From contig JAXSPP010000005.1 of the NCBI GenBank assembly GCA_037927135.1, positions 82,785 to 146,784 on the forward strand: a stretch of 64,000 nucleotides of DNA, in the 5' to 3' direction. Position 1 is the first letter of the stretch. Every line of letters starts with the position of its first letter. Origin of the DNA: Candidatus Pampinifervens sinense. GTDB lineage: Bacteria > Aquificota > Aquificia > Aquificales > Aquificaceae. This document shows, one piece after another, positions 53,801-59,800 of this stretch. The position numbers are program-made.

Positions 53801-56800
53801 TCCACACAAAGGATTGCACCTACAAAGACATAATGCTTGACCTTGCCATAGAAAGTATGGTGCATATGGGAAAGCTTGGAGAAAAGATAGGTGAGATGGG
53901 AGGCATGCCACAGATTGAAAGAGTGGACTTTTCTCCAAAGCCTCTGAAGAGCCTTCAAGAGCAGGTAAAGGCGGAGATACTCTATGAGCAAGAGACAGGT
54001 GGAGAGTATGGTAAAGAAATGAAAGCTATGGAAGATCCAAGTATAAAGAGGCTCTTCACCTTTATAGAAAACCAGGAGGAATATCACAAGCAAAAGCTTA
54101 TGGAGTTTTTCAAGCTTATGAACAGGCTAACGGTGGGAGACTTAAGGAAGAGGGATGCTTGACCTTGTGATAAACTCCTTCAGAGAGAGCGCCGATGTAA
54201 AGCTTGCCTTTGTGGAGCTTTATGCAGAAAGGATATTGGAAGTAGGCCAGATAATGGCGGAGGCCTTAAAAAGTGGAAATAAAATACTGCTTTTTGGCAA
54301 CGGTGGAAGTGCGGCGGATGCCCAGCACATAGCGGCGGAGATAGTGGGGAGGTTCAAAAAGGAAAGGAGGGCCCTTCCTGCCATAGCCCTCACCACAGAC
54401 ACCTCCATACTTACAGCCGTTGGAAACGATTATGGCTTTGAAACCATCTTTGAAAGGCAGATAGAGGCCCTCTGCATGCCCGGAGACATAGCCATAGGCA
54501 TTTCCACCTCTGGCAACTCTCCCAACGTGATAAGGGGTCTTATGAAAGCCCATGACCTTGGTGCCACCACGGTGGCCTTTACAGGAAGGAACGGGGGAAA
54601 GGTGGTAGACATTGCCCACTACAGCTTTGTTGTGCCATCCTACGATACGGCGAGGATTCAAGAGTGCCATATAACCCTTGGCCATGTTCTTTGCGAGATA
54701 ATTGACAGGCTTTTATGAAGGTCCTCCTTTTTGTAAAGGATACAAAGTCTGCCTTTGAGACATCCCAAAGGGTCAGGGAGCTTTTGCATTCCTTTGGCGT
54801 TCGCGTGGAGACATTTATAAACAAACGAGAAGCCAAAAGGCCAAGCTTGGAAGGTATAGACCTTCTTGTAGTGATAGGCGGGGATGGCACCTTTTTGGCC
54901 GGTGCCAGGCTGGTGGCACAAAGGTCCATACCCATCCTTGGCATAAACGAGGGAAGGTTTGGCTTTCTCACAGAGGTGGAAAGGGAGGACATGGAAGAGG
55001 TCATAGAAAAGGTTTTAAAAGGAGAGATAAAGCCACAAAAAAGGATGATGCTCTCCGCCTATTTGAAAAGAGGATCGGAAGAGGTCTATATGGGAGATTA
55101 TCTAAACGATGTGGTCATATCAAAGGAAAGCCTTGCCAGGATGGTGGAGGTGGAAGTATTTGTGGGAGAAGAGTCTGTCCTGAGGGTCTATGGAGATGGT
55201 GTGATAGTCTCTTCTCCTACCGGTTCTACCGCCTATGCCCTCTCCGCAGGAGGCCCCATCATATACCCCCTTTCGGAGGCCCTCCTCTTTGTTCCCATAT
55301 GCCCTCATACCCTCTCCAACAGGCCCCTTGTCCTCCCACCAGACTTTGAGATAAAGCTAAAAAACCTCTCCCAGGATGGCATGGCCTACCTAACACTTGA
55401 CGGCCAGGAGGGCAGAAGCTTAAACAAAGAAGACATTATAATAGTAAGGAGGTCAAAGCATTACTGCCTTATGTATCCAAACCCAAAGAGGAGCTTTTTT
55501 GGAATACTAAGGGAGAAGCTAAGATGGGGCTAAGTTCTTTATTTGAAAGCTACATAGCCTTCCGCTTCAAAGATGGCCAGCTACAGCCCATAAAACATCC
55601 CCACATACCAGACTTTGATAGCCTTTTGCACATAGACCACCAAAAAGAGATTCTAAGAAGGAACACACTGCAACTTGTAAAGGGCTTGCCTGCCAACGAC
55701 GCTCTGCTTTGGGGAGACAGAGGCACGGGGAAGTCCTCCTTAGTCAAGTCCATGCTTGGACTTTTTGCCAAGGAAGGCCTAAGAATTGTGCAAATATACA
55801 AGATGGACCTCTGGCATCTTTCAGACCTCTATGATCTCTTCAGAGAAAGGGAAGAAAAGTTTATCCTCTTCTTTGACGACCTTTCCTTTGAACCGGGGGA
55901 TGAGAGCATAAGGGTCTTGAAGTCTTTGATGGATGGAGACATTGAGGAGAGGCCTGCCAATGTGGTCATATACGCCACCTCAAACAGGAGGCACCTTATG
56001 CCAGAAAGGAACGGGGAAGAAAAGTTCCCAGAAGAAAGCTATTGGGAGAGGGTCTCCCTTGTGGAACGCTTTGGCATAAGGCTTGGCTTTTTCGCCTTTG
56101 GAAAAGAGGAGTACCTTTCCATAGTGAGGCACATAGTGGCCCAAAGGGGCCTAAATATAGAAGAAGAGGAGCTTGAAAGGCTTGCCCTCCAGTGGTCCAT
56201 GAGCAACGGCTTTTCTGGAAGGAGCGCCAGCCAGTTTGTAAAAAATCTGGAAGGTTTTTTAAAACTCACTTAAAATCTTTCTTATGACCTTCAGAGAGCT
56301 TTCAGAGTTCTTCCAAAGGATAGAGCAGACCACAAGCAGGCTTGAGATGGCAGACATACTAAGAGACCTTTTGGAAAAGGCCGATGTGGAAGAGATAGAC
56401 AAGGTGGTCTATCTGACCCTTGGCGAGCTTGTGCCAGCCTTCAGAGGCTTAGAGTTTGGTGTATCAGAAAAGCTTATGATGGAGGCCATCTCCAAGGCTT
56501 GCGGTGTTAAGGTAAAGCAGGTGGAGAGCCTATACAAAGAGAGGGGAGACTTGGGAGAGGTGGCGCAAGAGCTTATAAGTTGGCAGGGAAGGGGCCTTAG
56601 CTTAGTTAAGGTCTATCAAGAATTATTTGATATTGCAAGGACAAGGGGCACTCTGGACAAGGTCATGAGACTTATAAACCTCCTAAAAGGCCTTTCTGGC
56701 TTTGAGGCCAAGTATGCGGTAAGAGTGGTGATAGGAAGGCTAAGGCTCGGTGTGGGCGATGCCACCATAATAGATGCCCTGGCTCTTATGGCAAAAAGCA

Positions 56801-59800
56801 GGGAACTAAAGCCCCTTATAGAGAGGGCCTATAACCTCTGTTCTGATCTTGGCCTTGTAGCCAGAAAGCTAAAGGAAGAAGGGATAAATGCCCTAAAGGA
56901 TTTCAAGATACAGGTTGGCTATCCCATAAGGATGGCCTTGGCAGAAAGAGTATCAAGCGCCCAAGAGATAATAAGCAGGCTTGGAAGGTGTGCGGTGGAA
57001 GCCAAGTACGATGGCTTTAGGTTGCAAGTCCATAAGGATAGTCAAAAGGTTGAAATATACTCAAGGAACCTGGAGCGCATGACGGAGATGTTCCCAGATA
57101 TAGTGAAAGCCATCTTGGAAGACCTCCCTGCCAAGGAAGTAATATTGGAGGGTGAGGCCATAGCCATAAACGAGGAGACGGGAGAATTCTATCCCTTTCA
57201 GATAACCATACAAAGGAAGAGAAAGTATGGTATTCATGAGTATTCAAAAGAATACCCCCTAAAGCTCTTCTGCTTTGACCTCCTATATCTGGAAGGGGAG
57301 GACTACACTGTAAAGCCCTTCATTGAAAGAAGAAAGACCCTTGAAGGACTCCTCACAAAAACAAACACCCTCAGAGTCTCCGAGATGATAATCACAGATA
57401 ATGCCAAGGAGGTGGAAGAGTTTTTTGAAGAGGCCATAACCAGAGGCCTTGAGGGCATAATGGCAAAGAGGCTTGACGCTCCTTACACGGCAGGATCAAG
57501 GAATTTTAACTGGATAAAGCTCAAAAGGAGCTACAGGGGTGCTTTGGCAGACACCATAGATGTGGTGATTCTGGGTTATTACTACGGCAAGGGGGCAAGG
57601 GCAAAGCTCGGCATAGGTGGTGTGCTTGTGGGGGTCTATGACCCATCCACAGACACCTTCAAAACGGTTAGCAAGGTTGGTTCTGGCTTTACAGAAGATG
57701 AGTGGATAAGGCTTAAGAAGATGCTTGATGAGATAAGGATTGAACACAAGCATGCAAGGGTGGATAGCCTCCTTTCTGCCGATGTTTGGGTGGAGCCAAA
57801 GTATGTGATAACGGTAAATGCTGATGAGATAACAAGGTCTCCTTTGCACACAGCTGGAAGGACCATAGATAGCCCAGGCTATGCTCTACGCTTTCCAAGG
57901 GCTGTAAGCTTTATAAGGGAGGACAAAAACCCAGAGGATGCCACGACTGTAGAAGAGATCATAAGACTGTATGAACTTCAAAAGAGAGTGTCTGTAGAGT
58001 AGTGGCGGCGGGAGGACTCGAACCTCCGACCTGAGACTTATGAGATCTCCGCTCTAGCCAGCTGAGCTACGCCGCCTACTCAATAATATATTATAATCCA
58101 TTCCCACTGCCTTATAATTTATACCATGGGATACAGGGTAGCAATAGTAGGAGCAACGGGAGAAGTAGGAAGGGCTTTTTTAAGGGTTTTAGAGGAAAGA
58201 AACTTCCCTGTAGAGGATATATATCTTTTTGCTTCAGAAAAATCTGAAGGCCTTGAGCTGACCTTTAAAGGAGAGAGGATAAAGGTCCAAGCTCTAAACA
58301 AGGCCAAAAGTTTCTCTGGCATAGATATTGCCCTCTTTTCTGCAGGCTCCTCTGTGAGCAAGGAGTATGCCCCCAAGTTTGTCTCCGACGGTGCTGTAGT
58401 CATAGATAACTCTTCCGCCTGGAGGCTTGACCCGGATGTGCCCCTTGTGGTGCCCGAGGTAAACCCGGAAGATGTAAAGGATCACAAAGGTATTATAGCC
58501 AACCCTAACTGCTCCACCATACAGATGCTTGTGGCCCTAAAGCCCATATACGATGCGGTGGGCATATCCCATATAGTGGTTTCCACCTATCAGTCCGTTT
58601 CTGGTGCGGGTGCAAAGGCTATAAGGGAGCTTGAGGAGCAGGTAAAGGCCTGGTGTGAAGGGAGAGAAATGCCAGAGGCAAAGCATCTTCCCAAAAGGAT
58701 AGCCTTCAACGTCATACCACAGATAGATGTCTTTACTGAAAACGGCTACACAAAGGAAGAGATGAAGATGCTAAACGAGACTAGGAAGATACTGCATGAT
58801 CCTGAGATAAAGGTCTCAGCCACTTGTGTTAGGGTTCCAGTCTTCTATGGACACTCGGAGGCCATAAGCGTAAAGCTAAAGAAGGAGCTTTCTCCAGAGG
58901 AAGCAAGGGAGATTTTAAGGAAGGCAAAGGGTGTGGTGGTGGTGGATAACCCAGAGGAGAAGGCCTATCCTTTGGCCATAGAGGTGGCAGGAAGGGATGA
59001 GGTCTTTGTGGGAAGGATAAGGAGGGACCTTGTTTTTGAGCCAGGTCTTTCCATGTGGGTGGTGGCTGACAACATACGCAAAGGTGCAGCTACCAACGCA
59101 GTGCAGATAGCGGAGCTTTTACACCAGTATGCCTTGGTTTGAACATGCTTAGGATAAGGGAAAGGGCCCTAAGGAAGATAATAGAACAGGCAGAAAGGGA
59201 CTATCCTTATGAGACCTGCGGCCTCCTTTTGGGCAAGGTAGAAGGCTCTGTACGCACAGTCTTTGGTGCCTACGAGACACCCAACGCAAACCCAGACAGA
59301 AAGCACGACCGTTATGAGATAGCTCCAGAGGACTATCTAAAGGCTGAAAAGAAGGCAAGGGAGTTTGGCCTTGAAATAGTAGGTGTATACCACTCCCATC
59401 CAGACCATCCCGACAGACCTTCCCAGTTTGACCAAGAGAGGGCCTTTGAAGGCTGGTCCTACATAATACTCTCTGTAAGCAAGGGTAAGGTGGTCTCTTA
59501 CAGAAGCTGGGAGCTAATTGACGGCAAGTTTGTAGAAGAAGAGATTTTAATATTTGGGTTGTGAAGGAAACCATAAGGCTTTGTTTAAAAGAAGCAAAAG
59601 AGGCCTTTGAAAAGGGGGAGGTGCCAGTGGGATGTGTGATAGTGAAAGAAGGTAGGGTGATTGCGAAGGCCCACAACAGGGTGCAAGAATTAAAGGATCC
59701 TACAGCCCATGCTGAGATGCTTGCCATTAGGGAGGCTACAAAAAGCTTGGGTGAGAAGTACCTTTATGGCTGTGAAGTCTATGTAAGCCTTGAGCCTTGC

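Follow-up and report, generated by a model that had tools for sequence, protein, structure and literature searches.

Which enzyme seals DNA nicks in a bacterium that has no recognizable gene for LigA? NAD-dependent replicative ligase is treated as a line that divides bacteria from archaea and eukaryotes, and on this premise LigA has been taken up as a target for broad-spectrum antibiotics. A survey table of 2012 places LigA under "all bacteria". The question is raised here by a ligase gene of Candidatus Pampinifervens sinense (Aquificaceae), which lies in a 64,000-nucleotide stretch of contig JAXSPP010000005.1 (the window). On the sequence comparisons presented below, we consider it very probable that this bacterium and its Aquificaceae clade rely on a functional Lig1/archaeal-type ligase as their sole DNA ligase, which was gained and displaced LigA.

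The ligase gene and its product

The ligase ORF had been located exactly, and on the correct strand, by the first-pass annotation, and its description as a three-domain archaeal-type ligase with a KYDG motif was confirmed by Pfam (Table 1). A DNA-binding domain, a nucleotidyltransferase domain and an OB fold (PF04675, PF01068 and PF04679) follow one another in this order, all far above the Pfam cut-offs. The TIGR00574 (dnl1) model matched with 468.5 bits (cut-off 217.8) and was covered over positions 1-527 of 527. In the PDB search, the solved archaeal ligase 2hiv matched at full length with the same E-value as before (8.1e-147, query residues 1-571) and 2cfm at 2.5e-115; all close solved relatives belong to the ATP-dependent class. 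The alignment starts at residue 21 of 2hiv; the 20 residues before it, which we take to be the stretch with the PCNA-binding motif of the Sulfolobus enzyme, have no counterpart.

Table 1 Features of the ligase locus (positions in the window)
Feature	Position	Strand	Remarks
SIS-domain protein gene	54155-54718	+	upstream of ligase, same direction
NAD kinase gene	54715-55533	+	upstream of ligase, same direction
DUF815 AAA ATPase gene	55524-56273	+	directly upstream of ligase
Three-domain Lig1/archaeal-type DNA ligase gene	56284..58002	+	complete ORF, 572 aa + stop, no internal stops
N-terminal helical DNA-binding domain, residues 3-167	56290..56784	+	PF04675, 9.5e-39
Nucleotidyltransferase (adenylation) domain, residues 218-414	56935..57525	+	PF01068, 7.7e-58; motifs I, III, IIIa, IV and V inside
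Motif I KYDG, residues 241-244	57004..57015	+	invariant in 32/32 orthologues of the LigA-less clade
OB-fold domain, residues 443-548	57610..57927	+	PF04679, 1.2e-18; motif VI LRFPRA = residues 535-540

The six nucleotidyltransferase motifs (I, III, IIIa, IV, V and VI) were located at KYDG 241-244, EGE 289-291, FD 331-332, EGxxxK 390-395, WxKxK 410-414 and RFPR 536-539. From what is generally held for the ligase family, K241 is presumably the lysine that accepts AMP. In addition to motif I, residues E289/E291, F331/D332, E390/G391/K395 and K412/K414, as well as R536, F537, P538 and R539 of motif VI, are unchanged in all 32 orthologues. Neither PF01653 nor domain Ia was found in the protein by the Pfam scan. 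The enzyme is presumably ATP-dependent, as indicated by its family membership and by the absence of NAD-ligase domains. LigA combines a PF01653 adenylation domain and domain Ia with OB, zinc finger, helix-hairpin-helix and BRCT domains; identification of the protein as LigA was rejected, as PF01653 is missing from it and no match in the genome exceeds the cut-off.

The gene is under purifying selection. When compared to the copy in the closed genome G012 (97.6% nucleotide and 99% protein identity), five amino-acid differences stand against 59 nucleotide differences (dN/dS 0.026). Ratios of 0.05-0.07 were obtained for four pairs at greater distance, with dS close to saturation; two further pairs yielded no dS.

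The three genes upstream (54155..56273, +) abut or overlap, and the DUF815 ATPase gene stops 10 nt before the ligase ATG, which makes co-transcription likely. By Pfam, the eight neighbours of the ligase are ferritin-like, SIS, NAD kinase, DUF815, Asd, JAB, deaminase and S41 peptidase genes. Gene order at the locus is kept in part of genus g1 only and the neighbourhood differs between genera; for this reason, no functional link is claimed for the neighbours. Seven contigs of one hot-spring metatranscriptome map to 54334-57776 without differences, four of them on the ligase ORF. One (55859-56447) spans the junction between DUF815 and ligase without proving that both genes share a transcript, and as RNA libraries can contain DNA this evidence is weak.

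Absence of LigA from the assembly and the clade

LigA was traced by its adenylation domain (PF01653) in 151 Aquificota genomes, a larger sample than that used for the first-pass annotation. No match was found in any of 37 Aquificaceae genomes from genera g1, g2, g3, g5, g10 and g11 (our genome included, seven of them single-contig), so that the absence reported earlier for 26 genomes of five genera now extends, with g11, to six. PF01653 was also not found in two Hydrogenobacter sp. genomes. Outside these genera, LigA had been claimed for every other Aquificota genome (55 of 55), which in the larger sample holds for nearly all (111 of 114). The three misses comprise two fragmented g7 drafts (G134 and G145, with 230 and 340 contigs) and one genome of g21. 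These genomes are related rather than independent and the counts stand for few evolutionary events. All 11 LigA-less genomes sampled for RpoB form one clade (SH-aLRT 99); with the six genera united in this way, one loss suffices.

In our genome, PF01653 gave only an 11.3-bit match below the cut-off, inside an RNA-ligase ORF. As before, tblastn with LigA of the same family was negative, three such proteins returning a best E of 0.024 over a helix-hairpin-helix stretch, and no LigA remnant or fragment was detected by this search. In searches of the same kind, 36 of the 48 non-LigA ORFs that flank LigA in three relatives matched our genome (E <= 1e-10, 28-84% identity), and the three LigA ORFs themselves had no match at that threshold.

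The earlier caution that the assembly is incomplete proved justified. We did not find dnaN, a gene present in all 46 other genomes of the family, in our assembly, where its expected site abuts a contig end, and the assembly amounts to 1.55 Mb compared to 1.69-1.81 Mb in closed genomes of the genus. A completeness figure of 99.96% thus does not exclude hidden essential genes, and the absence of LigA from this bacterium rests on analogy with its closed relatives. Alternatively, LigA might be present and missed, in an assembly gap or through a sequence too divergent for PF01653, with the ATP ligase acting as an accessory repair enzyme. The hidden dnaN favours this explanation, as does G017, a draft rated "99% complete" that contains no DNA ligase of any kind. 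We nevertheless give it almost no credence, and for the clade it is close to refuted. The seven closed LigA-less genomes (G008, G010, G012, G011, G014, G021 and G036), each with the three-domain ligase, lack PF01653 as previously stated, and a full-length LigA query (720 aa) retrieved only helix-hairpin-helix matches of 13-17 bits from them. LigA of sister genera scores E-values of 1e-94 to 1e-108 with PF01653 and is therefore not hard to detect in the family, and the same search succeeded in 11 of 14 control genomes, among them each of the ten bacteria.

Distribution and origin of the ligase

Of the 36 other LigA-less genomes, 35 have an orthologue of the ligase (58-99% identity), in line with the 24 of 25 counted earlier; named carriers are species of Pampinifervens, Hydrogenobacter and Thermocrinis. 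The only miss is G017, where the lack of every DNA ligase points to an assembly gap as the likely cause. The orthologues form one clade (support 88 with FastTree, 95 with IQ-TREE and 100 with one metagenome protein added), which is sister (98) to ligases of Nitrospirota, Methanocellales, DPANN and one of Thermoproteota. ATP ligases of LigA-bearing Aquificota are patchily distributed (31 of 114 genomes; g4 5/8, g7 6/14, g17 0/9) and belong to a distant clade (100) next to sequences labelled Chloroflexota. Forcing both Aquificota sets together, a grouping picked after a first tree had been viewed, cost 240 log-likelihood units and was rejected by the AU test (p-AU 8.5e-06). The ligase of the LigA-less clade and the accessory ATP ligase found elsewhere in Aquificota have separate origins.

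A parallel was found among 251 Nitrospirota genomes (completeness >= 90%). At E <= 1e-150, 25 carry this ligase type, 24 of them without PF01653, and among the 220 genomes with PF01653 there is a single carrier. Of the 31 Nitrospirota genomes without LigA, seven gave no match at this threshold. LigA-less carriers include Thermodesulfovibrionales and Manganitrophaceae, one carrier being listed as a 4.6-Mb chromosome, and a further Nitrospirota group has a relative of the ligase at 48-49% identity. We think it likely that a single archaeal-derived ligase lineage has displaced LigA recurrently and clade-wide in free-living bacteria, with one or more events at the base of the Aquificaceae clade and one or more in Nitrospirota. 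One Nitrospirota genome, G151, has both LigA and the ligase type, which may be an intermediate state.

In the proposed course of events, an ancestor of the Aquificaceae clade would have gained a ligase of the lineage common to Nitrospirota and a few archaea and would then have lost NAD-dependent LigA by non-orthologous gene displacement, gain before loss being the order that we infer. The enzyme is predicted to adenylate itself at K241 with ATP and to pass the AMP to the 5' phosphate of the nick, which is then sealed; it would thereby join Okazaki fragments and close nicks left by repair.

Candidate enzymes and known ligase systems

The ligase had been said to have no paralogue. This holds for DNA ligases; PF01068 has two matches in our genome, the second (28-33 bits) being an RNA ligase of the Rnl3/Pab1020 type (365 aa, L003:1315-2412). 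With LigA missing and the only other covalent nucleotidyltransferase an RNA ligase, no DNA ligase candidate was found apart from the three-domain enzyme, which by elimination would have to serve both replication and repair. We infer from these comparisons that it is essential and replicative.

It could be argued that the Rnl3-type protein, or a ligase of an undescribed family, which lies beyond the reach of searches by described families, joins Okazaki fragments and leaves only repair to the three-domain ligase. The best PDB match of the Rnl3-type protein is indeed an entry titled "DNA ligase" (3qwu, 3.8e-151). However, its family matches are to RNA ligases (PF09414, 3.7e-25; the Pab1020 C-terminal domain PF18330, 8.1e-22; TIGR01209, 3.4e-123), and matches also occur in G134 and G145 of g7, a genus with LigA in 12 of 14 genomes, so that the Rnl3 ligase is not clearly tied to LigA loss; the component that tracks the absence of LigA, in two phyla, is the three-domain ligase. 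A division of labour of this kind appears very unlikely to us, and so, to the same degree, does an only partial change of cofactor, by which the sole ligase would use NAD+ or other nucleotides in addition to ATP. Some archaeal members of the Lig1/archaeal family are reported to take NAD+ or ADP weakly, which counts in favour of the latter. Against it, the ligase lacks domain Ia and the PF01653 fold, the parts that handle NAD in NAD-dependent ligases according to reviews, and its close solved relatives are uniformly of the ATP-dependent class.

Among known systems, the replicative ligases of archaea (2hiv, 2cfm; TIGR00574) have the same three domains and six motifs, and the ligase described here would share their role as sole cellular ligase. 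The archaeal enzymes dock on the sliding clamp by a PCNA-interacting motif. The host differs, being a bacterium from a family with a beta clamp throughout (dnaN in all 46 other genomes), and no PCNA domain was found in its own genome. When the ligase was folded together with the G012 beta clamp, with our own alignments as input, the pair received weak support and scored 0.55 (runs 0.55, 0.28 and 0.58; best of three controls 0.00; partner pLDDT >= 82; contact agreement between runs at least 0%), in a range (<= 0.60) that holds only 18 of 157 solved complexes plus both passing mismatches. In all, 116 of these 157 complexes and 2 of 215 mismatched pairs attained the pass mark.

For bacteria, the only precedent of LigA displacement found in the literature is a 2020 preprint on high-light Prochlorococcus marinus, in which AD-Lig P replaces the NAD-dependent ligase, by its own description the first reported example (bioRxiv 10.1101/2020.05.11.089284). 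In both cases a bacterial lineage is devoid of functional LigA and an ATP-dependent ligase is the probable replicative enzyme. The Prochlorococcus ligase is of another class, its OB domain being the OB-2 variant (PF14743) and its DNA-binding domain lacking a Pfam assignment (PMC7470946), whereas the ligase described here has PF04675 and PF04679. In Prochlorococcus, the ATP ligase occupies the LigA position of relatives and truncated LigA copies are left (10.1101/2020.05.11.089284); no such remnants were found here by tblastn of our genome. A shared position could not be shown, as LigA lacks a conserved context in Aquificaceae: the genes next to it are not the same in three relatives that have it, and the orthologues of these genes are spread across our contigs. 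The loss described here extends over a number of genera, of which some include cultured thermophiles, and is seen again in a second phylum.

If LigA displacement is recurrent as proposed, the rule that all bacterial replication uses an NAD-dependent ligase would fail for whole lineages, a replisome built on the beta clamp would have taken in an archaeal enzyme, and the old question of why bacteria use NAD+ would become testable. The clade would offer a natural experiment on NAD+ preference, on the recruitment of a foreign ligase to such a replisome and on the order in which essential replication genes are displaced. It would also warn annotators that "accessory" bacterial ATP ligases can be the essential ones.

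Accessory ligases with a similar architecture are known. Lig B, believed to derive from archaea by horizontal transfer, has an archaeal-like domain arrangement, co-occurs with replicative LigA and is clustered with genes for an Lhr helicase, a metallophosphoesterase and an exonuclease (PMC7470946). Our ligase is like Lig B in that a bacterial protein combines a DNA-binding domain, a nucleotidyltransferase domain and an OB fold. Its assignment to Lig B was rejected, as the LigA partner is missing from all 37 clade genomes by PF01653; none of the three cluster genes was found by Pfam among the eight neighbours. Closer by phylum are the ATP ligases of LigA-bearing Aquificota (g4, g7, g13-g15, g19, g20 and g23), likewise of the three-domain type with KYDG and only 43-46% identical to the clade ligase. 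They stand beside LigA in 29 of 31 genomes, the exceptions being the fragmented drafts G134 and G145, and in one copy codon 12 is TAA.

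A constrained ligase gene of the archaeal type

The first-pass annotation had described the window ligase as a three-domain enzyme of the Lig1/archaeal type, a description borne out by matches to the three Pfam domains of this type (PF04675, 9.5e-39; PF01068, 7.7e-58; PF04679, 1.2e-18), by a TIGR00574 score of 468.5 bits (cut-off 217.8) and by end-to-end alignment with solved archaeal ligases (2hiv, 8.1e-147; 2cfm, 2.5e-115). The 2hiv alignment starts at residue 21 of that chain, and the N-terminal stretch preceding it has no counterpart in the window ligase. Human ligase 1 ranked after the archaeal structures (~1e-79).

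Ligase genes of the genome and their locations
Feature	Location	Strand	Size	Basis or remark
Window DNA ligase	56284-58002	+	572 codons	Uninterrupted ORF
Rnl3/Pab1020-type RNA ligase	L003:1315-2412 (own contig C6, outside the window)		365 aa	Profile and PDB matches

Motifs were checked in an alignment of 32 orthologues, 74 named relatives and 15 ligases of other Aquificota. Residues K241, D243, G244, E289, E291, F331, D332, E390, G391, K395, K412, K414 and R536-R539 were invariant across all orthologues. Only 5 amino-acid and 59 nucleotide differences separated the ligase from its copy in the closed genome G012 (dN/dS 0.026); in four more distant pairs, whose dS approaches saturation, the ratio was 0.05-0.07, and for two pairs no dS value was obtained. 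Overall, the gene is working and strongly constrained. Within its family the enzyme is unremarkable; its unusual features are its role as the sole DNA ligase of a bacterial clade and the recurrence of this arrangement in Nitrospirota.

The segment at 54784-58096 (own contig C5, 137568-140880) was 97.6% identical in nucleotides to the corresponding G012 locus (L011) over 3315 bp, compared with 77-92% for five other segments of the two genomes, and gene order diverges directly after the ligase. This pattern suggests either a recent exchange of this segment or a mosaic assembly.

Absence of LigA from one clade of the Aquificaceae

The best match of PF01653, the LigA adenylation domain, in the own genome scored 11.3 bits, under the cut-off of 27, and fell in the RNA ligase ORF on another contig. 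Searching the genome with three same-family LigA proteins by tblastn gave a best E value of 0.024, over a helix-hairpin-helix stretch. As a positive control, 51 ORFs from three LigA-containing regions of relatives were searched in the same way: 36 of the 48 non-LigA ORFs were matched at E <= 1e-10 (28-84% identity), and the three LigA ORFs had no match at this threshold. PF01068 matched the window ligase and the RNA ligase and nothing else in the genome. The earlier statement that the ligase has no paralogue thus holds for DNA ligases and fails for the domain family as a whole, because PF01068 also recognizes the RNA ligase. The latter was identified by matches to PF09414 (3.7e-25), PF18330 (8.1e-22), TIGR01209 (3.4e-123) and PDB 3qwu (3.8e-151), and matches of the same kind were found in three further genomes (G017, G134 and G145). 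A 2025 mBio paper, reportedly on an RNA ligase that partners with protein-only RNase P, may concern the Rnl3/Pab1020-type family.

The own assembly is incomplete. Neither PF00712 nor TIGR00663 detected dnaN in it, although the gene is present in all 46 other genomes of the family, and at 1.55 Mb it is smaller than the closed genomes of the genus (1.69-1.81 Mb). In the closed G012, dnaN sits between segments that map to the end of own contig C8 (about 83150-83280) and to own contig C4 near 118861. The missing dnaN is therefore an assembly gap rather than biology, possibly with a rearrangement at the same place, and for this reason the own genome alone does not prove the absence of LigA. A clean deletion scar was sought by synteny, but LigA occupies three different neighbourhoods in the LigA-bearing relatives G056, G024 and G033 and the orthologues of its neighbours are scattered over the own contigs, leaving no comparable locus.

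Across 151 Aquificota genomes, PF01653 was found in none of the 37 belonging to g1 (20, including the own genome), g2 (1), g3 (7), g5 (7), g10 (1) and g11 (1), and in 111 of the 114 others; besides one g21 genome, the misses were two g7 drafts in 230 and 340 contigs. Seven of the genomes without LigA are single contigs (G008, G010, G012, G011, G014, G021 and G036); in these, a 720-aa LigA query returned only helix-hairpin-helix matches of 13-17 bits, in ORFs of ~583-590 aa. PF01653 was likewise not found in two genomes from records titled Hydrogenobacter sp. The absence claimed for five genera is thus upheld, and g11 joins them. An RpoB tree of 21 genomes, with a sister family as root, united the 11 LigA-less genomes in one clade (SH-aLRT 99) and left the LigA-bearing g4, g6, g7, g8 and g9 outside, so that one loss is enough to produce the pattern.

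Orthologues of the window ligase (58-99% identity) were present in all but one of the other 36 LigA-less genomes (35/36), and their reported association with LigA absence thereby extends to a larger sample. The orthologue of Hydrogenobacter thermophilus shares 71% identity with the window ligase. The genome without an orthologue, G017, lacks DNA ligases altogether, and its dnaN is split, which points to an assembly problem. The two dnaN pieces of this draft, rated 99% complete, lie at G017:C8:38076-39160 (ORFs of 249 and 141 aa), a case that shows how much can escape completeness estimates based on markers.

Two ligase lineages in the Aquificota and recurrence in Nitrospirota

An ATP ligase was also found in 31 of the 114 genomes of LigA-bearing genera, only 43-46% identical to the window ligase. 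This accessory ligase is patchily distributed (g4, 5/8; g7, 6/14; g13, 10/12; g14, 2/5; g17, 0/9; family f4, 0/25). In the closed LigA-bearing genome G033, codon 12 of its gene (L126, G033:C1:254900-256950) is an in-frame TAA, and the 571 codons after it are open. We do not call this a pseudogene, as translation may restart at M22 or the stop may be a sequencing error.

One reading would be that the LigA-less clade turned the phylum's older accessory ligase into its sole one. Two trees were built, a FastTree tree of 183 rows, which kept 123 of 150 library representatives (540-640 aa) and excluded incomplete loci as well as the stop-carrying copy, and an IQ-TREE tree of 69 rows. In both trees, the ligases of the LigA-less clade and those of other Aquificota formed two separate sets. 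The former grouped together with support of 88 and 95 (100 with one metagenome protein included), and their sister group (98) comprised Nitrospirota, three Methanocellales, four DPANN and one Thermoproteota sequence. The latter formed a clade of their own (100) adjoining Chloroflexota-labelled sequences. Name labels were available on three of ten clusters of tree neighbours and read Micrarchaeia, Dehalococcoidia/Chloroflexota and 'DNA ligase-1'. Constraining all Aquificota ligases to one group, a choice made after the first tree had been seen, cost 240 log-likelihood units (p-AU 8.5e-06). Promotion of the accessory ligase is ruled out by the separate clades and the AU test; the sole ligase is instead a separate acquisition.

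The closest named relatives beyond the Aquificaceae were Nitrospirota proteins (60-62% identity). PF01653 was missing from four of five genomes reached through the loci of such relatives; the record title of one of these four describes a 4.6-Mb Manganitrophaceae chromosome, and a fifth genome is titled Acidobacteria (see below). Among 251 Nitrospirota genomes (requested completeness at least 90%), 220 had PF01653 and 31 lacked it. At a carrier threshold of E <= 1e-150, the window-type ligase was present in 25, of which 24 lack PF01653 and one (G151) has both; it occurs in 24 of 31 LigA-less and 1 of 220 LigA-bearing genomes, a table that reflects few events as the genomes are related. In seven of the 24 LigA-less carriers the ligase is more distant, at 48-49% identity, and its ORFs measure 621-627 aa. 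The complementarity of ligase and LigA seen in the Aquificaceae is repeated in Nitrospirota.

The LigA-less genome titled a Manganitrophaceae chromosome contains three PF01068 ligase genes (L143, L146 and G154:C1:1053072-1053632; ORFs of 606, 544 and 825 aa). Two copies of the window ligase's lineage (L065 and L073) lie on two scaffolds of one Methanocellales MAG; they are 66-67% identical to a Nitrospirota query and sister to the Nitrospirota ligases in the trees. L092, from a record titled Acidobacteria bacterium J001, was not counted as a third phylum: its ligase is 75% identical to the window ligase and follows the ferritin-like/SIS/NAD kinase/DUF815 gene order of g1, so the record is probably a mislabelled Aquificaceae genome.

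Predicted role, published views and gene context

We infer ATP as the cofactor from the fold and from the absence of an NAD-ligase domain. From family knowledge, the ligase is predicted to be adenylated on K241, with motif VI of the OB domain assisting this step; AMP would then be transferred to the 5' phosphate at the nick, and attack by the 3' hydroxyl would close the gap in the strand. As the sole DNA ligase of the genome, the enzyme would have to join Okazaki fragments once primers are removed and also complete excision repair. Excerpts of the 2020 NAR review (PMC7470946) state that all bacteria studied replicate with NAD-dependent ligases, ATP ligases always being additional, and mention neither Aquificota nor Nitrospirota; the relevant table of a 2012 survey places LigA under 'all bacteria', and part of a 2025 review retains the view that bacterial replication uses the NAD-dependent enzyme. 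The one exception found, self-described as the first example, is high-light Prochlorococcus in a 2020 preprint (10.1101/2020.05.11.089284), which differs from the present case in its ligase class. A literature search that stopped short of subscription journals and preprint supplements returned no paper on such a loss in either phylum. Taken together, the original observation is confirmed and its interpretation supported.

The clamp of the Aquificaceae is the beta clamp encoded by dnaN, and no PCNA domain (PCNA_N) was found in the own genome. The ligase was folded with the clamp of G012, since the own assembly has none, using our own alignments. The score was 0.55 (runs 0.55, 0.28 and 0.58; best of three controls, 0.00), graded 'weak support' and not counted as evidence, with run agreement of at least 0% of contacts and a partner pLDDT of at least 82. 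For comparison, 116 of 157 solved complexes and 2 of 215 mismatched pairs reached the pass mark; only 18 of the 157 complexes scored 0.60 or below, as did both passing mismatches.

Upstream of the ligase lie abutting, co-directional genes for a SIS-domain protein, an NAD kinase and a DUF815 ATPase, the last ending 10 nt before the ligase ATG. Together with a ferritin-like gene, this run beside the ligase is conserved only in part of g1 and does not adjoin the ligase in g3, g5, Nitrospirota or archaea. For this reason a functional partnership is not proposed, and the neighbouring NAD kinase is treated as a coincidence. A scan of 53000-58300 returned five promoter-like and eight terminator-like sites against 6.1 and 6.1 in shuffles, which is chance level, and none on the + strand near the ligase gene; no Shine-Dalgarno-like run is visible ahead of its ATG. 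Seven contigs of one hot-spring metatranscriptome, without differences from the window, lie on 54334-57776, four on the ligase and one across the DUF815 junction, a hint of transcription only, as such libraries can contain DNA. Uncovered parts in run X15 are uninformative, and runs X16 and X19 gave one contig each (228 and 184 nt), too little for inference. DNA near-identical to 55500-58200 (0.94 of sampled words) occurred in 12 runs from nine studies; without any claim on habitat, these are labelled as hot springs, hydrocarbon, freshwater, drinking water, soil and groundwater metagenomes.
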